Positions 13,338 through 27,073 of a DNA stretch of 64,000 bases are shown here, piece after piece. Each line of letters starts with the position of its first letter. The stretch's first letter is position 1. The stretch covers positions 44,726 to 108,725 of the forward strand of contig NZ_CAXPMC010000008.1 in assembly GCF_964218355.1 (NCBI RefSeq), written 5' to 3'. Origin of the DNA: Ferrovibrio sp. (lineage in GTDB: Bacteria; Pseudomonadota; Alphaproteobacteria; Ferrovibrionales; Ferrovibrionaceae). A program made the translations under genes and the position numbers. A model generated the notes under the pieces. It worked only from the letters and a program-made list of their open reading frames with translations. It had not been told where the DNA came from and made no database searches.

Positions 13338-14912
13338 TTACCAGACGCCGAACAGGATGCCGCGCGCCCTGGCATTGCCGGTGCGCCGCTCGACATCCTC
13401 GTTCGACATGGTGGTGCGGATGCGGCGCTGCTGCAGCCAGTCCAGCAGCCGCGCCGCCATCTCGGCCCGGATGCCGGCATGGGCCGGGCTCTCGCCGAGA
13501 TCCTCGAATTCGTCCGGATCAGCATCGAGATCGAACAGCTGCGACCGGAAGCCTTCATAGGCGATGTATTTCCAGCGGTCGGTACGCACCATCCAGCCGC
13601 GGGCGCGGTCCGGTGGCAGCTTCAGGATCTGCCGTGCCTCGCGGAAGGCATAGTCGAATTCGCTGAAAGCCGCATCGCGCCAGTCCGGCAGGGAGGCACC
13701 GGCCAGCAGCGGCAGCAGCGACACCCCTTCCAGCCGGTGCGACTGCGCCGCACCGCCGGCCGCCTCGAGAAAGGTCGGCACCAGGTCGATCGCCTCGACG
13801 AAACGGTGGTCGACCTGGCCCCGCGTGGCATCCATGGCGGCATCCGGGTGATACACGATCATCGGAATCCGCACGCTCTCCTCGTGGAACAGCTCCTTCT
13901 CGCCCAGCCAGTGATCGCCCAGATAATCGCCGTGGTCACTGGTCAGCACGATCAGCGTGTCGTCCATGCGGCCCTGCTGTTCGAGGAAGGCGAACAGCCG
14001 CCCGAGATGGTCGTCCAGCTGCTTCACCAGCCCCATATAGGCCGGGATCACCGTGTCGCGCACCTCGTCGCGACTGAAATTGACCGATTCCTCATGCTGC
14101 ATGAAAGCCGCCACCACCGGATGGGGCGCCTCGCGCTCGCGCGGATGTTTCCTCGCCGGCAGGATCTGGTTCGGTCCGTACATCGCGTGATACGGCGCCG
14201 GTGCGATATAGGGCCAGTGCGGCTTGATATAGCTGAGATGCAGGCACCAGGGCGTCTCGCCGCTGTCGCGGATGAAATCGATCGCCCGGTCGGTCATGTA
14301 TGGGGTTTCGGAATCGGCCTCGCGCACGCGGGCCGGCAGGCGCGCATGGCGCAGATACCAGCCGCTGAGGATTTCCCCGTCGGGGCCTTCCGCCGCATTG
14401 GCAAAGTCATGCCAGGGATTGTCGGAGACATAGCCCTTGCTGCGCAGGTAACGGTTATAGGCCAGGTCGGGATCGGTACTCTGGTCCGGATGCAGGCCGT
14501 CGTCGCGTTCATACGGCTCGAAACCGCATTGCCCGACCAGGACACCGAGGGATGATTGCGGATCGAGCCCCAGCCGGCGCATGCCCTCGTCGTCGCCCTT
14601 CATATGAGTCTTGCCGACCAGCGCCACCCGGTAGCCCAGCGGCCGCAGATAATCGCCCAGCGTCAGCTCGGTCGCCCGCAGCGGCACGTTGTTGTAGGTG
14701 GCGCCGTGGCTGGTCATGTAGCGGCCGGTATAGAAAGACATCCGCGACGGACCGCAGACCGGTGCCTGGCAATAGGCACGGTCGAACAGGACCCCGCGTT
14801 TCGCCAGCCCGTCGATATGCGGCGTCTGCAGGGTCGGGTGGCCGGCGCAGGAGAGATAATCCGCCCGCAGCTGGTCGGCCATGATGAACAGGATGTTGCG
14901 AACCTTGCCCAT
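13338..14912 (-). CDS. Sulfatase-family hydrolase (aryl sulfatase / phosphonate monoester hydrolase-like), cytoplasmic
   Basis: NILFIMADQLRAD, CxPxR motif CGPSRMSFYTGRY, GKTH, SYIKPHWP and TSDHG; no signal peptide; start trimmed to 14912. Confidence 0.88.
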   Translation of the reverse strand: MGKVRNILFIMADQLRADYLSCAGHPTLQTPHIDGLAKRGVLFDRAYCQAPVCGPSRMSFYTGRYMTSHGATYNNVPLRATELTLGDYLRPLGYRVALVGKTHMKGDDEGMRRLGLDPQSSLGVLVGQCGFEPYERDDGLHPDQSTDPDLAYNRYLRSKGYVSDNPWHDFANAAEGPDGEILSGWYLRHARLPARVREADSETPYMTDRAIDFIRDSGETPWCLHLSYIKPHWPYIAPAPYHAMYGPNQILPARKHPREREAPHPVVAAFMQHEESVNFSRDEVRDTVIPAYMGLVKQLDDHLGRLFAFLEQQGRMDDTLIVLTSDHGDYLGDHWLGEKELFHEESVRIPMIVYHPDAAMDATRGQVDHRFVEAIDLVPTFLEAAGGAAQSHRLEGVSLLPLLAGASLPDWRDAAFSEFDYAFREARQILKLPPDRARGWMVRTDRWKYIAYEGFRSQLFDLDADPDEFEDLGESPAHAGIRAEMAARLLDWLQQRRIRTTMSNEDVERRTGNARARGILFGVW

Positions 14913-14951
14913 GGGGTGTCCGTCTCGGGGAAGCTGACCTGAGGGAATGAA

Positions 14952-14984
14952 CGGCCGGGTGGCCCGGAAGGTGCCACCCGGCCG
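14952..14984 (-). terminator. Strong hairpin after the TAXI binding-protein gene (weak terminator or mRNA stabiliser)
   Basis: CGGCCGGGTGGC/GCCACCCGGCCG 12-bp perfect stem; poor U-tract. Confidence 0.5.
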
Positions 14985-14989
14985 CGACT

Positions 14990-16024
14990 TTACTGCGGCA
15001 TCAGGCCTGCGGGAATCGTCATTCCGACTTCCTTGTAGTAGCGAGCCGCACCGGGATGCAGCGGCATGTTCGACATCTCGCGAAAGACATTCTCGATCCT
15101 GACGGCCCGCAGCCACGGCGTCTTGTCGCGCTGCTTCGCCGCGCCTTCCCAGAAGGCCTTGGTCATCTTGTAGATCACCTCGTCCGGCATATCCTTGCGG
15201 GTGCCGATGCCGACAATCGATCCGATCGTCGTCACATCCTCCTTGTTCACCTGGTTTTCGCCGTAAATAGCCGCCGGAATCTGATCGAGCACCCCGCCGG
15301 GCCGCGAGCTGAAAGCCTTGAATTCGTCGGACGCCATCTGCTTCTCGGTCAGGCCCAGCAGGCGGATCTTGCTGGTCAGAGCGAATTGCTGGATCACCGG
15401 GCTCGGCGGCAGGGTCGGATTCATATAGACGTCAATATGCTTGTCCTGGAAAGACTGCGCGGCCGCTTCCCAGCCAAGGTTGATCTGTTCGAAATCCTTG
15501 CCCGGCTCGTAGCCGGTGGTCAGCTTCATCAGCTGCGCCATGGTGTTGGTTGCGCCACCGCCGGGCGGCCCGAGGAACACGCGCTTGCCCTTTATCTGCT
15601 CAAGGTTGGTGATGCCGGAATCGGCATAGACAACGATGTGATAATAGCCGAGCGGGAAATTGAAGACGCTGCGCAGGTTTTTCGATAGTTCCGGTGCGTC
15701 GGTGATCTTGGCATACATCGCCGTGCCTTCGATCATGAAGCCCTGCACAGTCGGCGACGACATGAAGAAATCCATCTTCCCGCGGGCGGTTTCCAGGGCA
15801 TGGGCGGTGGCGGCACCGGTGGCATTCACCTGCACTTCCATGTCCGGATGGGCCTGGTTGACGATGTTGGCGAAGGTCGACATCACCAGATAAGGCGAAC
15901 TGCCGGGCCCGAGGGTCGACAGCTTGTAGTAATCCTTGGCCCCGGCCGGCCCGGCGGACAGGCCGGCAAGCACTGCCGTGGATATGGCCGCCATGACAAT
16001 GCGGCGCGATACGGATGTGGTCAT
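14990..16024 (-). CDS. TAXI-family TRAP transporter solute-binding protein
   Basis: Signal peptide (SRR...AGPAGA), LKGKR-like IKGKRVFLGPPGGG, and PLHPGAARYYKE C-terminal TAXI motif. Confidence 0.92.
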   Translation of the reverse strand: MTTSVSRRIVMAAISTAVLAGLSAGPAGAKDYYKLSTLGPGSSPYLVMSTFANIVNQAHPDMEVQVNATGAATAHALETARGKMDFFMSSPTVQGFMIEGTAMYAKITDAPELSKNLRSVFNFPLGYYHIVVYADSGITNLEQIKGKRVFLGPPGGGATNTMAQLMKLTTGYEPGKDFEQINLGWEAAAQSFQDKHIDVYMNPTLPPSPVIQQFALTSKIRLLGLTEKQMASDEFKAFSSRPGGVLDQIPAAIYGENQVNKEDVTTIGSIVGIGTRKDMPDEVIYKMTKAFWEGAAKQRDKTPWLRAVRIENVFREMSNMPLHPGAARYYKEVGMTIPAGLMPQ

Positions 16025-16056
16025 TGTTTCCTCCCTCTTTCTTTCCTGCAAACCAG

Positions 16057-17982
16057 TCACGCCTGCCGCCAGCCGAGGCGGGCGGCGAGTGCTGCCAGAC
16101 CCGGCGGCGAGCCGGCCAGGCCCCGCCGCCAGTCGACCGCCAGCATCGCCAGGGCGGCGACGAAGGCAGCGGTTTCGATGATCTCTCCCGGCATCAGCAT
16201 GAGGATGCCGGTGGCCGTACGCACCAGGCGGGACGGCCAGTCGAGGCGGGCCCGGTCCTGGCCGCCAAGCCCGCTGGCCAGCACCCAGATCGCCAGGGCC
16301 AGACGCAGGCAGGCCCAGAGGAATTCCGGCCAGGCAAAATCCACCATCAGCGTCAGCGACGGGTTGTAGACAAAGACAAAGGGAATGATGAAGCCGATCA
16401 CCGCCACCTTCACGGATTCCACCGCCGTCGCCATCGGGCTGGCGCCGCAGATCGGCGCCGCAGCGAAGGCGGCCAGAGCCACCGGCGGCGTGATCGATGA
16501 CAGCACGCCGAAATAGACCACGAACAGATGTGCCACCAGGGTCGGCACGCCGAGGCCCTCGATGGCCGGGCCCATTGCCAGCACGATGATCAGGTAGGCC
16601 GGCACCGTCGGCATGCCCATGCCGAGCACCAGGCAGCCGGCCATGGTCAGCAACAGGGCAAGGAACAGGGAATCGCTCGACAATGCGAGGATCACATTGG
16701 CAAAGCGGATGCCGAGCCCGGTCATGTTCATCACGCCGATGATCATGCCGACCGCACCCACCGCGATCAGGATGGTGGCACCGGCCCGCCCGGCCTGGGC
16801 CAGTGCCGCCAGCAGCCGCTGCGGTCTGCGGCGCAGGTCCGGATTGAGCAGCAGCCCCAGCGCTACCGCCGACAGCGCGGCCCAGAAGCCCGCTGCGGCC
16901 GGCGACCGGCCGGCAATCAGCAGCACAACGATCACCAGCAGCGGCAGCACGAAGGTCAGCGACATCACCCAGTCCTGCCGGGTCATCGACTGCCGCTCGG
17001 CATCCGGGATCGGCTGGATGCCAAGGCGGGCGGCACTGACCGCCACCGAGGCAAACAGGCTTGCATAATAGAACAGCGCCGGCACCAGCGCGGCGACGCA
17101 GATGGTGAGATAGGGAATGCCGGTCACATCGGCCATGATGAAGGCCACCGCCCCCATCACCGGCGGCGTGAACTGGCCGCCCGACGAGGCCGCCGATTCA
17201 ACGGCACCGGCAAATTTCGCCGGAAAGCCACGCTGCTTGATCATCGGCATGGTGAAGACGCCGGTACCGACCACATTGCCGGCAACGCTGCCGGACATGG
17301 TGCCGAACAGGGCGCTGGCAACGATCGCGGCGTGGGCCGGCCCGCCGCGCAGCCGGGCCGTCACGCTGAAAGCGAGCTTCAGCAGCACCGGGCCGGCCCC
17401 GATTCCCTCCAGCAGCACGCCGAACACCACGAAGATCAGGATCAGGCTGGTGACCACGGCAACCGGGCCGCCGAAAACCCCGTCGAAACTGTACCAGACC
17501 GTGCGCAGGGTTTCGTAATAGGGGAACCCGGCATGCCGGAATATCCAGGGCAGATGATGGCCATAGAGCGCGTAGACCAGCGCCAGTGCGCAGACGATCA
17601 CCAGCGGCCAGCCGAAAATCCGTCGCGTCAGTTCCAGCAGCAGCAGCATTGCGAAGCCGCCGAGCCACAGGTCGCTGACGGTGAAATCGTAGAGACCGAT
17701 TTCCAGCGCGGCACCGATCTCGAAATACCGCCAGAAGGCGGCCATGCCGAGCAGCAGCAGCAGGATATCGGCAGCGCGGCCGATCCGGCCCGGTAGCGGA
17801 AAGGCCAGCAGGCCAAGCGCCATGGCCACCGCCAGCGTCCCGACCCGCGACACCGTCTCGTCGAAGACGCCGACCCCGGCGGTGTAAAACGCCACCAGGC
17901 TGATGCCGATGCCAAGCAGCACCACCGCCGCCTGGTCCGGTCCGGCCAGAATCGCAGTCACGGCCGCGCGCAGCTGGCGCAT
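16057..17982 (-). CDS. TRAP transporter fused 4TM/12TM permease
   Basis: GGPAHAAIVASALFGTMSGS, GAVESAASSGGQFTPPVMG, LGMGMPTVPAY and FGVLSSITPPVALAAFAAA; start trimmed to 17982. Confidence 0.92.
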   Translation of the reverse strand: MRQLRAAVTAILAGPDQAAVVLLGIGISLVAFYTAGVGVFDETVSRVGTLAVAMALGLLAFPLPGRIGRAADILLLLLGMAAFWRYFEIGAALEIGLYDFTVSDLWLGGFAMLLLLELTRRIFGWPLVIVCALALVYALYGHHLPWIFRHAGFPYYETLRTVWYSFDGVFGGPVAVVTSLILIFVVFGVLLEGIGAGPVLLKLAFSVTARLRGGPAHAAIVASALFGTMSGSVAGNVVGTGVFTMPMIKQRGFPAKFAGAVESAASSGGQFTPPVMGAVAFIMADVTGIPYLTICVAALVPALFYYASLFASVAVSAARLGIQPIPDAERQSMTRQDWVMSLTFVLPLLVIVVLLIAGRSPAAAGFWAALSAVALGLLLNPDLRRRPQRLLAALAQAGRAGATILIAVGAVGMIIGVMNMTGLGIRFANVILALSSDSLFLALLLTMAGCLVLGMGMPTVPAYLIIVLAMGPAIEGLGVPTLVAHLFVVYFGVLSSITPPVALAAFAAAPICGASPMATAVESVKVAVIGFIIPFVFVYNPSLTLMVDFAWPEFLWACLRLALAIWVLASGLGGQDRARLDWPSRLVRTATGILMLMPGEIIETAAFVAALAMLAVDWRRGLAGSPPGLAALAARLGWRQA

Positions 17983-18113
17983 CCGCCGCCTCCCCTTGCT
18001 GTTTCCCTCCGTGGCAGCCTGCCGGCTGTCCTGATTGGCAGTAACCGTTATCCGTCCGGTCGCCGGCAGCAAAGTCCGATTGACCGGCGTTTCACCTGGT
18101 GTAACCTTGGCCC

Positions 18114-18923
18114 ATGACCGCCATAACCCTGCCGCAGGTCAAATCCATCCGCGCACTCGCCCGCGGCCTCGATGTGCTGAAGGCCCTGCAGGACCGTCCC
18201 GCCACCAGCCTGCAGGACCTGCATGGCGACACCGGGCTGTCGAAACCGACCCTGCTGCGCATCCTGAAGACACTGGAAGAGGCCGGCATGGTGCATCGCG
18301 CCATCGGCGATGGCCGCTACCGCGTCAGCGCCCGGGTGCGGTTCCTCGGCCGCGATCTCGGCGTCCACGATGCCATTGCCGAACTGGCCGCGCCGGTGCT
18401 CGACCGGCTGTGCCGCCATGTGCTGTGGCCATCCGACATCGCCGTCTACAAGGACGGGGCCATGGAGATCCTCGAAACCAGCCGGCAGCAGACGCCGTTC
18501 CTGGTCAATCGCGCCCGCATGGGCTACCGCGTGCACATGCTGATGAGCGCCATGGGCCGCGCCTATCTCGCCTTCTGCACGGAGGATGAGCGCACCGCGA
18601 TCCTCGGCCGTCTGCAGCGGTCGGACGATCCTTATGACCGCAAGGCCCGCAACCGGCCGGCCGTGCAGACGATGCTCGGCGAGGACCGGGCCCGCGGCTA
18701 TGCGACGCGCGAGCCGGGTTACGGATACTGGGGGACCGACCGCAGCCAGGCCGCGGCGATCGCCGTGCCGGTGCGGCGCGGCAATCGCGTGTTCGCCAGC
18801 ATCAACCTGTGCTGGGTGGCCGGCGCCGTGCCGACCGACGAGATGGTTCGTCTGCATCTGGCCGACCTGCAGCAGGCTGCAGACGAAATCGCCCGTGGCG
18901 TCGCCGACGAAGACGCCGCCTGA
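18114..18923 (+). CDS. IclR-family regulator (MhpR-like)
   Basis: SIRALARGLDVLKAL...TGLSKPTLLRILKTL HTH and SAMGRAYLAF; TAACCT 6 nt before the ATG suggests a leaderless mRNA. Confidence 0.9.
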   Translation: MTAITLPQVKSIRALARGLDVLKALQDRPATSLQDLHGDTGLSKPTLLRILKTLEEAGMVHRAIGDGRYRVSARVRFLGRDLGVHDAIAELAAPVLDRLCRHVLWPSDIAVYKDGAMEILETSRQQTPFLVNRARMGYRVHMLMSAMGRAYLAFCTEDERTAILGRLQRSDDPYDRKARNRPAVQTMLGEDRARGYATREPGYGYWGTDRSQAAAIAVPVRRGNRVFASINLCWVAGAVPTDEMVRLHLADLQQAADEIARGVADEDAA

Positions 18924-18936
18924 CCAGGAGCCCTGC

Positions 18937-19593
18937 ATGCATCTTCTTGTTTCCGGTGGAACCGGACTGATCGGCAGCCTCGCGCTGCGCCACGCCATCG
19001 GGCATGGCGGCATCGACCGGATCACGGCGCTGGGCCGCCGGCCGGCCTCGCTCGACAGCCCGCAACTGAGCCAGATCGCCTGCGATTTCGCCAGTCTCGA
19101 TGCGGTGGCCGACCAGATTCAGCCGGCTGACGCGGCCATCTGCGCGCTGGGCACGACCATGCGGCAGGCCGGCTCGCGGCAGGCCTTCCATGCCGTCGAC
19201 CACGACGCCGTGATCGCCTTTGCAAGGCTGGTAAAAACGAAGGGTGTCCGGCGGTTCGCGATTGTCTCCTCGGTCGGTGCGTCCAGCCGGTCCGGCAGCT
19301 TTTATCTCGCCACCAAGGGCCGTGCGGAAGACCGGCTCGGGACCATCGGTTTCGAACGGCTGGTTATCCTGCAGCCAAGCTTCCTGCTGGGCGACCGCAG
19401 CGAGAAGCGGTTTGGCGAGGGCTACGCCACTGCCCTTGCGCAACTGCTCAGCCCGCTGCTGGCAGGACCGCTGCGCCGTTACCGCCCGATCGAAGCCGAT
19501 CTCGTCGCACGGGCCCTGCTGCGCGCCGTCACCGATGACGGGGCCGCCGCCGGCCGCTTCGACTATGACGGCATCCGCAGGCTGGCGGCATAG
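18937..19593 (+). CDS. NAD(P)-binding oxidoreductase (TIP30/YraR-like)
   Basis: GGTGLIGS Rossmann motif, CALGTTMRQAGS...F.AVDHD, SSVGA and FYLATKG; start at ATG 18937 inside the longer listed ORF. Confidence 0.85.
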   Translation: MHLLVSGGTGLIGSLALRHAIGHGGIDRITALGRRPASLDSPQLSQIACDFASLDAVADQIQPADAAICALGTTMRQAGSRQAFHAVDHDAVIAFARLVKTKGVRRFAIVSSVGASSRSGSFYLATKGRAEDRLGTIGFERLVILQPSFLLGDRSEKRFGEGYATALAQLLSPLLAGPLRRYRPIEADLVARALLRAVTDDGAAAGRFDYDGIRRLAA

Positions 19594-20744
19594 GCCAGCA
19601 GGGCCTCGTCCTGGCCGGCACCCGCCAGCACGGACAGCCCGAGCGGGCAGCCGTCCAGTTCGGCCAGCGGCAGGCTGAGCGCCGGCAGGCCCGCATGACC
19701 CGCCACCGACGTCAGGGCCAGCGCCGCCGCATAAAAGTCGCGCGCAGCGGCATCGCGCAGGAAACGACGCGGTGCAATGCCGGGCGTGGTCGGCAGCAGC
19801 AGCAACGTGCCGGGCGGCAGCATGTCGCGGATACGGCCGGCAGCCGTCTGCCGCCAGTGACGCCAGCGCAACACGTCATCCGTTGTCACACTGAGGGCAT
19901 CGGCAAAGCGCGGCGCAATGGTCTCGCCGAAGACCGGCCGCCGCTGCCGGATCCAGTCGCCCAGCGCCGTCGCGATCTCCGCGCCCTGCAGCACGCGATA
20001 GGCCTCGCGGAAATCGGCCGCCGCTCCCCCGTAGATATCGGCATCTTCCGCCGCGCCGAGCCCTTCGGCAGCTCCGCGCAGAACGAGGGCGGCGGCAGGA
20101 TCTACCAGCGCGAAGGCGTCCCGCGCCAGCAGAAGGCGGCGGGGCGCGGCAGCCGTGCCGGCATCCTCCAGCAGGCAGCGGCCTGCCTTTTCCAGCAGCG
20201 CGCCGTCACGCGCGAACAGGCCGACCGTGTCGTAACTCGGTGCGAAGGGGATGACGCCATCGAGCGGCACCCGGCCATGGCTCGGGCGGAAGCCGAAGAT
20301 GCCGCAGAAGCCGGCCGGCACACGCACCGAACCGCCGGTATCGGTGCCGAGCGCCAGGTCGGCCAGGCCGGCAGCAACCGCCACCGCCGATCCGCTCGAT
20401 GAACCGCCCGGGAGGCGGCCGGGGGCGCGCGGATTGACCGGCGTGCCGGTATGGACATTCTCGCCTTCCAGGCTGAAGGCCAGTTCGTCGGTCACCGTCT
20501 TGCCCGCCAGCGCCGCGCCGGCTTCCAGCAGGCGCTGCACAGCCGGCGCCGAATCCGCGGCCGGATGCTGCCCGCTGCGCCAGTCGGGATTGCCGCCGCC
20601 GGTGATCTCGCCGGCCACGTCGATCAGATCCTTTACCGCGAAGGCCAGGCCATCGAGCGGCCCGGATGCCAGCGGGGCAAGCCGGCAGCGATGGCCGGGA
20701 ACGAAGGCACCGAAATCATCCGGCGCCGCGGCCATGGCGGTCAC
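19563..20744 (-). CDS. Amidase-signature family amidase (~393 aa)
   Basis: [17 protein letters not shown] and [12 protein letters not shown] (Ser-cisSer-Lys triad); GTG start 20744 overlaps the upstream TGA (GTGA coupling). Confidence 0.9.
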
Positions 20745-21403
20745 GTCAGGGCTTGGACGATGGTGTCGGTCGGCGCCGTCCAGCCGACAATCCCGCCCTG
20801 CGCCCGGATCATTGCCAGCGTCGCCGCCTTGAATTCCGGGAAGTAGCTCTCGGTCGCATCCTCGGCAAGGATACATTCATAGCCGCGGTCATTGGCCTCG
20901 CGCATCGTGGTCTGCACGCAGACCTCGGTGGTCACGCCGGCAAAAACCAGGTGGCCGATCCCCTGCCGAAGCAGCAGGTCGCCGAGCGGCGTGGCGTAGA
21001 AGGCACCCTTGCCCGGTTTCACGATCACCGTTTCCCCCGGCAGGGCCGCCAGTTCCGGCACGAAATCGTTGCCCGGCTCGCCATCCACCAGGATGCGCCC
21101 CATCGGACCGGCATCGCCGATGGCCAGCGCCCCGCCGCCGCGTGCGCGTTTGGCCGGCGGACAATCCGAAAGATCCGGTTTGTGCCCCTCCCGGGTATGG
21201 ATCACCGGCAGGCCGGCGGCGCGGAAACCGTCGATCAGCCGGCGTACCGTCGGCACGATGGCGGCCAGCGGTCGCACATCGTTGCCCAGTACCGAACCGA
21301 AGCCGCCTTCCTCGATGAAGTCGCGCTGCATGTCGATCACGACCAGGGCGAGCCGGCCGGCCGGAAAGCTGTAGTCGTAAGGCTGGGCGGCAATCACGGG
21401 CAT
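20741..21403 (-). CDS. trtA: Triuret hydrolase (isochorismatase-like cysteine hydrolase)
   Basis: Catalytic D24-K129-C162 plus F35, L39, N41, E160, Y187 and I205, the residues recalled as distinguishing TrtA from BiuH, at identical numbering. Confidence 0.85.
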
Positions 21404-21412
21404 GGCAGCACC

Positions 21413-22333
21413 TCACTTGCCGCGCTGGAATGGCAGGGTCAGCGCCGTCGGCGGCTCCAGCCGGCCGACGATGCCGGCCACCGCCAGCAGAGCCAGCAGA
21501 TAGGGCAGCATCAGCAGGAAGGCCGTGGGCACGTTGATGCCCATGGCCGGCAACTGGAACTGCAGGGCGGTGGCCGCCCCGAACAGCAGGCAGGCGCCGA
21601 TGGTGCGGCCGATATTCCAGCCGCCGAAGATCACTGCCGCCAGAGCGAGATATCCGGCGCCGTTGGTCATGTTCTCGGTGAAGGTGTTGATATCGGCCAC
21701 CGACAGGAAAGAACCTGCCAGCCCCGCCATGGCGCCGGTGATCAGCACCGCCTGCCAGCGCGTGCGGGCAACCGCGATACCGGCCTTGTCGGCCGCACGC
21801 GGCTCATCGCCCACCGCCCGCACCGCCAGCCCGAAGGATGTGTATTTCAGCATCGCCCAGAGGCCGGCCACGATCGCCAGCCCGACATAGACGAAGACCG
21901 ACTGCTGCAGGAAGGCCGTGCCGATGAAAGGCAGGTCGCTGATGCCCGGAATGTCGAGCTTCGCCAGCCCCGGAATCTCCTCGCGCGACAGGCCTCCGAA
22001 GATGATCCGGTACAGCAGCGTGGTGGCGCCGAGCGCGAGGATGTTGAAGCCGATCCCCACCACCAGCTGGTTGGCACGCAGGTTGACGCTGAGCAGGGCC
22101 TGCAGGGCTGCAACAGCCACCGCCGCCAGCACCGCGCAGAGAATGCCGAGCACCGGCTGGCCGGTTCCCCAGGAACCGAGCGCGCCGAAGAAGGCTGCGG
22201 TCAGCATCATGCCTTCGAGGCTGAGATTGAGCACGCCGGAGCGTTCCGAAACCAGCTCGCCGCTGGCCGCGAGGATCAGCGGCATCGACAGGCGCAGGGT
22301 GGAGGCAATGAAGATCGCCAGTGTCTCTTCCAT
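21413..22333 (-). CDS. ABC transporter permease (nucleoside/BMP type)
   Basis: ERSGVLNLSLEGMML, GLAVRAVGDEPRAADKAGI and GAGYLALAAVIFGGW. Confidence 0.92.
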   Translation of the reverse strand: MEETLAIFIASTLRLSMPLILAASGELVSERSGVLNLSLEGMMLTAAFFGALGSWGTGQPVLGILCAVLAAVAVAALQALLSVNLRANQLVVGIGFNILALGATTLLYRIIFGGLSREEIPGLAKLDIPGISDLPFIGTAFLQQSVFVYVGLAIVAGLWAMLKYTSFGLAVRAVGDEPRAADKAGIAVARTRWQAVLITGAMAGLAGSFLSVADINTFTENMTNGAGYLALAAVIFGGWNIGRTIGACLLFGAATALQFQLPAMGINVPTAFLLMLPYLLALLAVAGIVGRLEPPTALTLPFQRGK

Positions 22334-23415
22334 CAGCGTGCCCCCTTTTCCAGCTTCTCGACCAGGATCACCGAACCGGCCACGGCGATGACGATCAGGC
22401 CCTGGATCACCAGGGTCAGCGCCGCCGGCACGCCGGCCATGATTTCCATGGAAATGCCGCCCGAACGCAGAAAGCCGAAGAACAGCGCACCGGCCAGCAC
22501 GCCGGTAGCCGAGCCCCGCGACAGCAGGCCGACCACGAGGCCATCAAAGCCATAGCCCGAAGAGAAGCCGGTCTTCAGATAATACTGTTCGCCCTGCAGC
22601 ATGATGGTGCCGGCGAGACCGCCGAAAGCACCGGCCATCGCCAGCGCACCGACCAGCAGAATACCGCCCGGCATGCCGGCGCGGCGCGCCGCCAGTTCGT
22701 TGAGGCCGATGGCGCGCAGCCGCAGCCCGAAGGTCGAGCGCTGCAGCACGATGGCGGTAGCCACCGCCAGCAGAATGCAGATCACCAGGCCGATATGCAG
22801 CGGCGATTCCGCATCGCCGGTCAGGCCGGGCAGCCGGGTCGGCACCGGAATCTGCAGCGATTCCGGCAGCGTCGCCGAGGAGGTCTGCGGCTGGCGCAGC
22901 AGCGCCGTCGACTGCACCGACCAGTAGACCATCAGCAAGGCAACAAAGCCCAGCAGCAGGGTGCTGATCACCTCGTTGGTGCCGAATCGCACCTTGAGGA
23001 TGCCGGCAATGGCGCCCCAGACAGCACCGGCAACAGTGCCGGCCAGCATCGGCAGCAGCATCGCCAGGCCGAGCGGCAGGCCGTCGACATGGCCATAGAG
23101 CGCGACCGCGGTGGCGGCGATGCCGCCCACCGCGATCTGCCCCTCCCCCCCGACATTGGTGAGATTGGCGCGGAACGCGAAGATGAAACCGAGCCCGACC
23201 AGCGACAGCGCCACCGCCCGGTTCACCGAAGCGCCGAAGGCGAAGGCCGAGCCGAAGGCGCCATCCAGGAATGCCTCGATGGCATCGGGCACCGAGCGCC
23301 CGCTGATCGCGATCAGCAGCAGGCTGACCAGCAGCGAAGCGGCCACCGCCGCCAGCGGAATGGCAATCCGCGCAAGTCGCCGCCAGTCCGGCAGGGAGGC
23401 CGCCAGCGCCGTCAC
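22333..23415 (-). CDS. ABC transporter permease (nucleoside/BMP type)
   Basis: NVGGEGQIAVG, GTNEVISTLLL, FGLRLRAIGLN and GYGFDGLVVGLL. Confidence 0.92.
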   Translation of the reverse strand: MTALAASLPDWRRLARIAIPLAAVAASLLVSLLLIAISGRSVPDAIEAFLDGAFGSAFAFGASVNRAVALSLVGLGFIFAFRANLTNVGGEGQIAVGGIAATAVALYGHVDGLPLGLAMLLPMLAGTVAGAVWGAIAGILKVRFGTNEVISTLLLGFVALLMVYWSVQSTALLRQPQTSSATLPESLQIPVPTRLPGLTGDAESPLHIGLVICILLAVATAIVLQRSTFGLRLRAIGLNELAARRAGMPGGILLVGALAMAGAFGGLAGTIMLQGEQYYLKTGFSSGYGFDGLVVGLLSRGSATGVLAGALFFGFLRSGGISMEIMAGVPAALTLVIQGLIVIAVAGSVILVEKLEKGAR

Positions 23416-24995
23416 AGGCCATGCCCCGACATCAGGGCGCCGATGGCGGCGCGTTCGCCGGGCTCAGCCGGCCGTTCTCCGACCAGCCGGCCGCGATACA
23501 GCACGACGATGCGGTCGGCCACCGCGATCAGTTCATCCAGTTCGCTGGAGATCAGCAGCACGCCGACACCGCGCCGGGCGGCCGCCCGGATCTGCCGGTA
23601 GACCGCCTCGACGGCATTGATGTCGAGGCCGCGGGTCGGCTGCGCCGCCACCAGGGCGACCAGCGGATCGAGCGTGAGTTCGCGGGCCAGCACGGCCTTC
23701 TGCTGGTTGCCGCCGGACAGGCCTGAGAAGGCGACATCGGCACCAGCGGCGCGCACGTCGAATTCCTGCATCAGGCCGCGTGCCGCCTGGTTCAGCGCAT
23801 TGCGGCGCAGCAGGCCGAAGCGGGTGAAACGGTCCAGCTTGTTGAGATACATGTTCTCGGCCACCGACATCGCCGTGACGCAGGCGACAGCGTGGCGATC
23901 CTCCGGCACGATGCCTCCGCCCGCCGCCGTCACCGCCGCCGGGCCGGCCTCGGTCAGCTCGGTTTCGCCGATGAAAAACCGGCCGGCCGCCGGCCGCTGC
24001 AGGCCGGCCAGCACCATGCCGAGCTCGCTCTGGCCGTTGCCTTCGACACCGGCGAGCCCGACGATCTCGCCGGCGCGAATCTCCAGGGTGAAATTGTCGA
24101 GCCGGACGGCATCATGGCGATCCTTCACGGTGATGCCGTCGCAGACCAGGGCGCGCGGGCGCGGAGCATCGCCGGCAGAAACCGGCGGCGCAGATGCCGC
24201 GCCGGATTCGGACAGCGCCACATCCAGCGACTTCACCTCGCGGCCGACCATGGCGCGGACCAGCGCACCCATATCGGCGGTCGCCATTTCCGCCTTCGCC
24301 ACCACGCGGCCGCCGCGCAGCACGGCGACACGATCGGCCACTTTCGCGATCTCGGCCAGCTTGTGGGTGACAAGGATCACCGCGCGACCGCTGTCGGCGA
24401 CGCGGCGGCAGATATCGAGCAGCGAACCGATCTCGTCGGGCGGCAGCACGGCAGTCGGCTCGTCGAGCACCAGCAGCCGCGGCTCGCGCATCAGGCATTT
24501 GACGATCTCGGCGCGCTGGCGCTCGCCGACCGACAGCTCGCCGACCACCGCCTCGGGGTCGAGGCTGAAGCCGAAACTTTCGGCGATGCTGCGGATCTTT
24601 GCCGCAAAAGCCCGGTGCTGCAGCAGGCCGCGGCTCTGGCCCAGCATCAGGTTCTCGACCACGGTCATGCGTGGCACCAGACTGAAATGCTGGTGCACCA
24701 TGGCAATGCCGCTGTCGAGCGCCTCGGCCGGGCCGGCCGGCACCCATTCACGGCCGGCGAAGCGCATCAGCCCGTCATCGGGCCGGTATACGCCGAAGAT
24801 CAGGTTGCACAGGGTCGACTTGCCGGCACCGTTCTCGCCCAGCAGGCATTGCACCTCGCCGACCCGGAAATCGAGCGAGACATCCTGCAGGGCCTGCAGG
24901 CTGCCGAAGCGCTTGCCGAGATTCTCCAGCGCCAGCAGCGGCCGCGTCTGCGACGCGACCGCCTCCGCCGGCAGCTGGCTGGCAACCTGGTGCAC
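23412..24995 (-). CDS. ABC transporter ATP-binding protein (tandem NBD, sugar/nucleoside type)
   Basis: GENGAGKST, LSVGERQ, LDEPT, GVEGNGQSEL, LSGGNQQK and QPTRGLD. Confidence 0.95.
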   Translation of the reverse strand: MHQVASQLPAEAVASQTRPLLALENLGKRFGSLQALQDVSLDFRVGEVQCLLGENGAGKSTLCNLIFGVYRPDDGLMRFAGREWVPAGPAEALDSGIAMVHQHFSLVPRMTVVENLMLGQSRGLLQHRAFAAKIRSIAESFGFSLDPEAVVGELSVGERQRAEIVKCLMREPRLLVLDEPTAVLPPDEIGSLLDICRRVADSGRAVILVTHKLAEIAKVADRVAVLRGGRVVAKAEMATADMGALVRAMVGREVKSLDVALSESGAASAPPVSAGDAPRPRALVCDGITVKDRHDAVRLDNFTLEIRAGEIVGLAGVEGNGQSELGMVLAGLQRPAAGRFFIGETELTEAGPAAVTAAGGGIVPEDRHAVACVTAMSVAENMYLNKLDRFTRFGLLRRNALNQAARGLMQEFDVRAAGADVAFSGLSGGNQQKAVLARELTLDPLVALVAAQPTRGLDINAVEAVYRQIRAAARRGVGVLLISSELDELIAVADRIVVLYRGRLVGERPAEPGERAAIGALMSGHGL

Positions 24996-25007: not shown

Positions 25008-26000
25008 TCAGGCGTCGAGCACCTTGATCTTGCCCGACAGCAGGTCCTTCTTGATCTCCTCCAGCTTGGCCTTCATCGCCGGCGTGGCGCCGGTGCAGAT
25101 CACCATGTCGGAGGATTTCGGCCCCATGGCGAGGCCGAAGGGCTTGAATTCCGGCTTCCAGCTGCCGGCTGCCGCCTGCTCGATGGCATATTCGACCTGG
25201 AAACCGACGCCGGTGATGGAATAGGCGATATAGAGCGGGTCGGTGCCGCAGCGATCGGTGTAGCTGCCGATGATGTGGGTGCCCTTCTCGCGTGCCGCCT
25301 GCTCCATGCCGCGCAGACCGAGATTGAGGATGTGGTAGTGGATATCGGCGCCCTGGGCGATGGCGGCCAGCGTGGCTTCCTTCGACTTGGCGACGTCGTC
25401 GAAATCGCCGGTGTAGTTCTCGAAATACTTGATGCCCGGGTTGATGTAGCGGGCGCCGTTGCCGAATTCCTTGCCGGTATTGACGATGGCCGGGATTTCC
25501 AGGCCGCCGACGTAAGACACCGCGCCGGTCTTCGACAGCATCGCGGCGGCCGCGCCGGCGACGAAGCCGATCTCGGCCTGGCGCACGTCATAGCCCGACA
25601 CGTTGGCCGGCTTCGCCGCATCGGCATTGCCGCCGACGATGGCGAATTTCACCTTCGGGAAACGCGGCGCCACCTTGAAGACCGAGGCCTGGGTCTGGCC
25701 GCCGACGCCGATCACCAGCTCGTGCTTGCCGGCCAGCGCGACCAGCACCTGCTCCATGTCGCCGAACTTGACATTCTCGATGTATTTGACGGCGATCTTG
25801 CTGCCGAGCTTCTTCTCGGCGGCCTTCAGGCCGTCATAGCCGGATTCCATCCAGCCCTTGTCGGATTTCGAACCCGGGATCAGCACGCCGACCGTCAGCG
25901 GACCGGCCGCCCGCGCCGGCGCGGCCTGGCCGCCCAGCATCACAAGGCCGGCGGCGCCGGCCGTACCCATCAGAAATCCACGGCGATCGATCTGCATCAT
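25008..26000 (-). CDS. BMP-family ABC substrate-binding protein with twin-arginine signal
   Basis: IDRRGFL Tat motif; PGSKSDKGW, GFVAGAAAAMLSKTG and GDFDDVAKSKE...IAQGAD typical of BMP/PnrA proteins. Confidence 0.9.
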   Translation of the reverse strand: MMQIDRRGFLMGTAGAAGLVMLGGQAAPARAAGPLTVGVLIPGSKSDKGWMESGYDGLKAAEKKLGSKIAVKYIENVKFGDMEQVLVALAGKHELVIGVGGQTQASVFKVAPRFPKVKFAIVGGNADAAKPANVSGYDVRQAEIGFVAGAAAAMLSKTGAVSYVGGLEIPAIVNTGKEFGNGARYINPGIKYFENYTGDFDDVAKSKEATLAAIAQGADIHYHILNLGLRGMEQAAREKGTHIIGSYTDRCGTDPLYIAYSITGVGFQVEYAIEQAAAGSWKPEFKPFGLAMGPKSSDMVICTGATPAMKAKLEEIKKDLLSGKIKVLDA

Positions 26001-26046: not shown

Positions 26047-26062
26047 AGCAATCGCCGTGCCA
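26047..26062 (-). promoter_or_regulatory. Sigma54 (-24/-12) promoter of the ABC-trtA-amidase operon
   Basis: Minus strand TGGCACG-GCGA-TTGCT matches the sigma54 consensus, 46 bp upstream of the BMP start. Confidence 0.85.
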
Positions 26063-26224: not shown

Positions 26225-26240
26225 TGGCAGGAAACTTGCT
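26225..26240 (+). promoter_or_regulatory. Sigma54 (-24/-12) promoter of the divergent cysteine hydrolase
   Basis: TGGCAGGAAACTTGCT has exact GG-N10-GC spacing, 32 bp upstream of ATG 26273. Confidence 0.75.
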
Positions 26241-26272: not shown

Positions 26273-27073
26273 ATGAGCAAAACCGGGAAAAAGACCGCCA
26301 AAGCCGCACTGACGCCGCTGGGTTCACCGCAGGCCGGTTTCGCCTGGGGGGCCAGCGCCGGCCATATCGACATGGCCACGCCGCCGGCGAAGCCGAAACC
26401 GCTGACCATCGCCGCGGCACCGCAGACGGTGACCATCGACCTGAAACGCAGCGCCCTCATCGTCATCGACATGCAGAACGACTTCTGCACCAAGGGCGGC
26501 TGGGTCGACCATATCGGCGGCGACTACCGGCCCGACCGCAAGCCGATCAGGCCGCTGCAGAAGCTGCTGCCGGCTCTGCGCAAGGCCGGCATGCCGGTGA
26601 TCTGGGTGAACTGGGGCAACCGGCCCGACCTTGCCAACATGCCGCCGAACCAGATCCATCTCTACAAGCCATCCGGCAAAGGCACGGGCCTCGGCGATCC
26701 GCTGCCGGGCAGCGGCGCGCCGGTTCTGCAGAAGGACAGCTGGGCCGCCGCCGTGGTCGACGAGCTGGAACAGAAGCCGCAGGACATCAAGGTGGACAAA
26801 TACCGCATCAGCGGATTCTGGGACACGCCGCTTGACAGCATCCTGCGCAATCTCGGCATCCGCACCGTGCTGTTCACCGGCGTGAATACCGACCAGTGCG
26901 TTCTGCACAGCCTGACCGATGCCAATTTCCTCGGCTATGGCTGCGTGCTGGTGGAAGACTGCTGCGCCACCAGCTCGCCGGATTTCTGCACCGAGGCGAC
27001 GGTCTGGAACGTCAAGAAATGCTTCGGCTTCGTCACGGACTCCGGAAAGATCCTCAAGGCGCTGAAAGCCTGA
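26273..27073 (+). CDS. Isochorismatase-family cysteine hydrolase, substrate unknown
   Basis: VIDMQNDF, DKYRISGFW and GVNTDQCV (Asp-Lys-Cys triad); SD GAGGA; lacks the BiuH/TrtA KPGKG and MREANDRG motifs. Confidence 0.88.
   Translation: MSKTGKKTAKAALTPLGSPQAGFAWGASAGHIDMATPPAKPKPLTIAAAPQTVTIDLKRSALIVIDMQNDFCTKGGWVDHIGGDYRPDRKPIRPLQKLLPALRKAGMPVIWVNWGNRPDLANMPPNQIHLYKPSGKGTGLGDPLPGSGAPVLQKDSWAAAVVDELEQKPQDIKVDKYRISGFWDTPLDSILRNLGIRTVLFTGVNTDQCVLHSLTDANFLGYGCVLVEDCCATSSPDFCTEATVWNVKKCFGFVTDSGKILKALKA

Follow-up and report, generated by a model that had tools for sequence, protein, structure and literature searches.

Triuret, a widespread contaminant of urea fertiliser, also arises when urate is oxidised. 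To our knowledge, no enzyme other than TrtA is known to open this molecule, and a TrtA is expected to convert it to carboxybiuret while disfavouring biuret about 10^4-fold.

The TrtA of Herbaspirillum sp. BH-1 acts on triuret with a kcat/Km of 6x10^5 M-1 s-1 and has a specificity ratio for biuret of 1.7x10^-5; its identity to the biuret hydrolase BiuH is 48% (PMC7948467). The catalytic residues of this enzyme are D24, K129 and C162, and the roles of the substrate ligands F29, E72, K132 and Q202 have been described. Positions F35, N41, E160, Y187, I205 and A134 discriminate TrtA from BiuH, and short N-terminal strands are kept in the former and lost in the latter (PMC7948467). The specificity of TrtA depends on subtle influences of the second shell and the backbone, for which single mutations do not account, and single TrtA-to-BiuH substitutions yielded no biuret activity (PMC7948467). 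The reaction yields 1-carboxybiuret, which loses CO2 spontaneously to give biuret (half-life about 20 min) and which is also hydrolysed by AtzEG (PMC7948467). In canonical clusters, both published (PMC12625717) and among the loci compared here, a Bmp-type ABC transporter is as a rule found beside trtA.

The window analysed here is a stretch of 64,000 nucleotides from a Ferrovibrio sp. genome. At the trtA interval given in Table 1 it holds a single coding-like ORF, whose product, judged from its sequence, is most likely a triuret-specific hydrolase. The GC3 of this ORF (0.82) is similar to that of the adjacent genes, and a GAGGTG motif lies 7 nt ahead of its ATG. Generic resources say little about the protein. 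It reaches 144.7 bits against PF00857 (cut-off 27), a match for which Pfam yields 'Isochorismatase' alone, and among NCBIfam models the closest to it is the BiuH equivalog NF050097, at 246.2 bits and below the curated cut-off of 370. Homologs are named 'cysteine hydrolase' by NCBI and 'nicotinamidase-related amidase' or 'biuret amidohydrolase' by JGI. The preliminary description had anticipated that an automatic pipeline would label the protein only as a cysteine hydrolase, and this is indeed what NCBI calls near-identical proteins.

The best match among PDB sequences is the Herbaspirillum sp. BH-1 TrtA 6XIX (E 2.7e-90, 305 bits), followed by the BiuH structures of Rhodococcus (207 bits) and Rhizobium (195 bits). 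Identity to 6XIX is 142/208 (68%) with no gaps. HMMER and BLASTP alignments to 6XIX and 6XJE are ungapped across 208-210 residues, with the deposited chain shifted by +3 throughout, which we take to be a tag remnant; therefore the published numbering (D24/K129/C162) is also that of the window protein. The alignment to the TrtA structure sequence that had been proposed as a check thus gave one shared numbering. Direct indexing then finds D24, F35, L39, N41, K129, E160, C162, Y187 and I205, together with F29, E72, K132, A134, V157, T158 and Q202. This accounts for the catalytic triad Asp24-Lys129-Cys162, the V157-T158 pair (which would form the cis-peptide) and the ligands F29, E72, K132 and Q202, which are invariant in 81/81 proteins of the TrtA clade.

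The earlier placement of F35, L39, N41, E160, Y187 and I205 and of the triad at TrtA positions is borne out by both indexing and alignment, and the residues that had been given for BiuH at the six sites (Y35/M39/Y41/D160/T187/V205) are seen in the aligned 6AZO and 6XJM. The wording "six TrtA specificity residues" holds for F35, N41, E160, Y187 and I205. L39 is absent from the text of the original paper, where A134 is the sixth; with this correction, 6/6 published discriminators are present in the window protein. Such a match is not due to chance, because overall identity to the characterised TrtA is 68%. Residue identity is nonetheless strong evidence of specificity rather than proof of it, because specificity depends on the second-shell and backbone effects described above.

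The AlphaFold2 model of the protein (pLDDT 95.4, pTM 0.92) adopts the isochorismatase-like fold and matches TrtA structures with TM 0.95-0.97. Its best PDB match is the triuret-bound TrtA 6XJE_B (TM 0.97, rmsd 1.1 Å over 220 columns); BiuH structures come next, with TM 0.95 and longer alignments of 224-228 columns. The short N-terminal strands appear in the model as a two-strand sheet that superposes with that of TrtA.

From 80 genome loci that encode relatives of the protein, we extracted 81 TrtA-like and 61 adjacent BiuH proteins. The residues F35, L39, N41, E160, Y187 and I205 occur in 81/81 TrtA-like proteins, and Y35, Y41, D160, T187 and V205 in 61/61 BiuH proteins. Position 39 is less clean: it is L in 81/81 TrtA, M in 59/61 BiuH and L in 2/61 BiuH. 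The combination F35/N41/E160/Y187/I205 splits TrtA from BiuH in 142/142 sequences, and L39 does so in all but two. Position 134 is A in 75/81 TrtA and S in 56/61 BiuH.

In a maximum-likelihood tree rooted on a divergent RutB-like paralog, the TrtA-like proteins and 6XIX form one clade of 82 rows (SH-aLRT 100), which a stem of 1.12 with 100% support separates from BiuH. The window protein lies in a subclade nested within the TrtA clade (99% support), together with proteins of Ferrovibrio xuzhouensis (94% identical), Reyranella soli (89%) and a Rhodospirillales MAG; its sister group consists of cyanobacterial, Sorangium and Nitrospirota TrtAs. PDB scores, residues, clade membership and best structural match all support the TrtA-type reading of the preliminary description. 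The tree left out the 50%-identity representatives, since that search gave mostly fused or fragmentary proteins. The best of these representatives, P0123-P0131, are 500-640 aa long with two matched stretches, and appear to be tandem TrtA/BiuH-like fusions or fusions with other domains.

Table 1. Features of the trtA locus and of its divergent neighbour (positions in the window)
Feature	Coordinates	Strand	Basis and remarks
trtA ortholog, 220-aa isochorismatase-like cysteine hydrolase	20741..21403	-	ORF, residues, PF00857, 6XIX alignment, tree, AF2 model
Short amidase-signature amidase, PRK08310 type	19563..20744	-	390 aa from ATG 20735, or 393 aa from GTG 20744
ABC permease (BPD_transp_2)	21413..22333	-	PF02653 131 bits; 9 nt upstream of trtA; synteny in loci L014-L016 and L094
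ABC permease (BPD_transp_2)	22333..23415	-	PF02653 113 bits
Two-domain ABC ATPase	23412..24995	-	PF00005, two stretches
Bmp/PnrA-family substrate-binding protein (SBP), first gene of the operon	25008..26000	-	PF02608 131 bits
Sigma-54 type -24/-12 box TGGCACGGCGATTGCT	26047..26062	-	Motif; faces the SBP-...-trtA-amidase operon
Second sigma-54 type box TGGCAGGAAACTTGCT	26225..26240	+	Motif; faces the divergent hydrolase gene
Divergent isochorismatase-like cysteine hydrolase IHL2, RutB-like	26273..27073	+	RutB model 157 bits, BiuH model 138 bits

On the minus strand, trtA occupies fifth place in a tightly packed operon of six genes that reads SBP, ATPase, permease, permease, trtA, amidase (Table 1). 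The amidase closes the operon with an ATG 5 nt past the trtA stop, or with an alternative GTG that overlaps this stop as GTGA. It scores 451.9 bits against NCBIfam NF006169 (cut-off 391) and far below the cut-offs of the AtzE and AtzF models, and its nearest structures are the probable amidase 2DC0, malonamidase E2 and AtzE. Its triad motifs (Lys35/Ser112/Ser136) are preserved, and it carries the GGSVRVPA motif typical of the family, with a Val aligned to Arg158 of malonamidase E2, a putative carboxylate ligand. A homolog search returned the generic name 'amidase' only. The amidase gene adjoins trtA in three related loci (L014-L016) and in 6/9 genomes of the genus that carry this trtA type; the remaining three have it at another place or lack it. 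Among metagenomic contigs, 18 lengths occur in both the TrtA and the amidase homolog list, which suggests that the pairing is widely conserved there.

Two boxes of sigma-54 type lie in the region between the operon and the divergent gene. The one facing the operon is the sole match without mismatch to TGGCAC-N5-TTGCW in the 64 kb, and the one facing the divergent gene is the sole match with one mismatch. Both are conserved in L014, L015, L016 and L094, the former with its GG/GC elements in place. The first box may accordingly be read by its motif as a functional sigma-54 promoter element.

The divergent gene encodes the orphan hydrolase IHL2, whose scores against the RutB and BiuH models are far below their cut-offs and whose best PDB match is RutB. 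It keeps its position across from the operon in L014-L016 and L094, and its counterparts at this place in Ferrovibrio and Reyranella loci are 86-97% identical to it. The protein keeps the D/K/C triad and has W, I and V at the positions of E72, K132 and Q202. We considered IHL2 as a substitute for BiuH and rejected it: RutB-like and without equivalents of these three ligands, it does not qualify as a BiuH under the known mode of binding, and by sequence it is predicted to be neither BiuH nor TrtA. Elsewhere in the window, and unrelated to the trtA operon, the interval 13338-18923 holds a TAXI-TRAP transporter with a fused permease (16057-18072) and a binding protein (14990-16060), a hydrolase of the sulfatase family (13338-15116) and an IclR regulator that is divergent (18114-18923).

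This organisation is not the common one. About 60 of the 80 loci read SBP, permease, permease, biuH, ATPase, trtA, after which comes either atzF or the pair atzE and atzH, an arrangement that agrees with published descriptions and is found in Alpha- and Betaproteobacteria, Cyanobacteria, Nitrospirota, Sorangium and Methylomirabilota. In seven of the canonical loci (L037, L055, L078, L079, L085, L086 and L092) homologs of atzE and atzH stand behind trtA, either instead of atzF or in addition to it, which suggests that a link from TrtA to AtzEG is widespread. The window and L014-L016 share the order given above and have no biuH. Ferrovibrio xuzhouensis KCTC 42182 and Reyranella soli NBRC 108950 are among the strains with this operon. 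The typical context, in which trtA is clustered with biuH and atzF, is thus not seen here: biuH is absent from the locus as well as from the genome, and atzF lies on another contig (C16). A search of the organism's own genome (4.24 Mb, 100% complete) for BiuH found no protein above the cut-off, the best match being the window TrtA itself. Within the genus, 9 genomes carry the window type of trtA and no BiuH, 5 carry a trtA of the canonical kind (74-75% identical) and have biuH upstream of it at a distance of about 2 kb, and 10 have neither trtA nor BiuH.

Since the genome has no BiuH, carboxybiuret is most likely consumed by AtzEG, AtzH and AtzF encoded on the other contig. There (L013, C16:216000-234000) we find atzF, an Opp-type ABC transporter, an AtzG-like ORF (62 aa, PF13318 49 bits), atzE (729 bits, cut-off 461), an AtzH-like gene and atzD (479 bits, cut-off 360). 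All five Atz proteins of the genome (AtzD, AtzG-like, AtzE, AtzH-like and AtzF) score above their family cut-offs. Across the genus, AtzE is present in 14/14 TrtA-bearing genomes and in 3/10 others (Fisher p 3e-4, uncorrected for relatedness), and AtzF in 14/14 and 2/10 (Fisher p 6e-5, likewise uncorrected for relatedness). In the relative G022 (L094, contig C79:1-19000), the Ferrovibrio-type transporter-trtA operon, without the short amidase, abuts atzF...atzE-atzH. The trtA operon and the atz cluster, separate loci in the window genome, are joined in this relative.

Taken jointly, these observations are best explained by a functional TrtA ortholog, expressed from a sigma-54 operon, whose carboxybiuret is passed on through AtzEG, AtzH and AtzF, and we regard this combined reading as very probable. 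By analogy with the characterised enzyme, Cys162, activated by Lys129 and Asp24, would attack a terminal carbonyl of triuret; ammonia would depart, and hydrolysis of the thioester would free 1-carboxybiuret. The Q202 of the partner subunit, positioned by N41, E160 and I205, and the lid residues F35 and Y187 would set the length of the pocket for triuret, and the pocket so shaped would bar the productive binding of biuret. The operon would probably be run from the sigma-54 promoter, which suggests expression under nitrogen limitation. Carboxybiuret would then probably be converted to 1,3-dicarboxyurea by AtzEG, to allophanate by AtzH and to ammonia and CO2 by AtzF, and the co-transcribed amidase may act on a carboxylated or plain ureide.

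Could the subclade have left triuret behind? It is unlikely, in our view, that the Ferrovibrio/Reyranella proteins have shifted to another acyl-urea or ureide, brought in by a distinct Bmp transporter and processed by the amidase and the RutB-like hydrolase in a pathway unrelated to triuret. Several features would fit such a shift: the transporter proteins of the window and L014-L016 share just about 25-38% identity with their canonical counterparts (about 25-31% for the window SBP when compared to that of canonical trtA-biuH clusters), gene order and partner enzymes differ, IHL2 and the amidase belong to uncharacterised families, and the subclade sits on a branch of its own (length 0.23). However, a comparison of 108 subclade and 78 canonical TrtAs found no subclade-specific substitution that would hint at a functional shift. 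None of the columns differs in conservation between the two groups, at least 98% invariance in both is seen at 78 positions, and the active-site and second-shell set is identical to that of TrtA. The G022 operon, which lacks the amidase, is moreover joined to an atzF/atzGEH cluster that handles the TrtA product, and within the genus TrtA strictly co-occurs with AtzE and AtzF. Still, the operon departs from all trtA contexts that have been characterised, and the missing biuH, a transporter of about 30% identity and a different order with a different amidase leave room for a related but different ureide.

A second reading, which we hold to be very unlikely, is that of a generalist acting on both triuret and biuret and making up for the missing BiuH, in the opposite direction to RhdBiuH of Rhodococcus. 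The window genome and 8 congeners with the same trtA type do lack any BiuH, the TrtA paper suggests that single-copy organisms may select for generalists (PMC7948467), and the 20-min half-life of carboxybiuret means that some biuret needs handling. Yet no residue conserved in those canonical TrtAs that are accompanied by BiuH is altered in the window subclade, and all second-shell residues that hold Q202 in the 'triuret' position are retained. The failure of single substitutions to confer biuret activity on TrtA also speaks against a generalist, and the AtzEG route would bypass biuret. As for the protein being a BiuH, as its best NCBIfam match (the BiuH equivalog) and the JGI name 'biuret amidohydrolase' of some close homologs would have it, we reject this extremely improbable identity on the family cut-off (246 bits being far under 370), on the residues, with none of Y35/Y41/D160/T187/V205 present, and on the tree, where the long and fully supported TrtA stem stands in between.

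A functional TrtA ortholog feeding the Atz enzymes thus remains the preferred reading. Beyond it, it is possible, if somewhat doubtful in this full form, that Ferrovibrio and Reyranella carry out a BiuH-independent mineralisation of triuret, in which a sigma-54-controlled Bmp-type importer supplies the substrate and carboxybiuret is captured before its decarboxylation by AtzEG/AtzH/AtzF and/or by the short amidase, which would in the latter case be a new carboxybiuret, biuret or allophanate amidase.

As an enzyme the protein is no surprise, because TrtA clusters are common in the literature; it belongs to a known family, and its discovery is incremental. At the level of the pathway, the BiuH-less and sigma-54-linked operon with its uncharacterised amidase represents a moderate variant, and this context points to the link between TrtA and AtzEG as well as to the amidase. 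For annotation, the name TrtA would replace the uninformative 'cysteine hydrolase' or the wrong 'biuret amidohydrolase' for many proteins of Ferrovibrio and Reyranella (this analysis turned up 108 close homologs), and the five-residue signature F35/N41/E160/Y187/I205 is directly usable to this end.

Altogether, three described systems frame this locus. With the TrtA of Herbaspirillum sp. BH-1 (6XIX, 6XJE, 6XJ4; Tassoulas, Elias & Wackett 2021, PMC7948467) the window protein shares triad, ligands, the six published discriminators and the numbering, and a Bmp-type ABC transporter adjoins the gene in both. In contrast to Herbaspirillum, the window genome has no biuH/trtB at the locus or elsewhere and its atzF lies on another contig; the order SBP-permease-permease-biuH-ATPase-trtA is replaced by SBP-ATPase-permease-permease-trtA, a short PRK08310-type amidase takes the place of atzF, and a promoter of sigma-54 type is indicated by its motif.

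The BiuH proteins of Rhizobium leguminosarum bv. viciae 3841 (6AZO) and Rhodococcus sp. Mel (RhdBiuH, 6XJM) have the fold, the triad and the first-shell ligands in common with the window protein, at an identity of about 44-51%. They differ from it in carrying Y35/M39/Y41/D160/T187/V205 and usually S134, where the window protein has F, L, N, E, Y and I with A134, and they form a separate clade, the window protein falling below the NCBIfam BiuH cut-off. Finally, the atzDGEHF genes of the cyanuric-acid pathway of Pseudomonas sp. ADP, whose AtzEG acts on the 1-carboxybiuret that TrtA produces, have their counterpart in the single cluster of atzD, atzG-like, atzE, atzH-like and atzF of the window genome, a complete lower pathway of the ADP type in which an Opp-type transporter lies between atzF and atzG. 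This cluster is set apart from trtA on its own contig, and the co-occurrence in the genus and the juxtaposition in G022 point to a probable link between the two.
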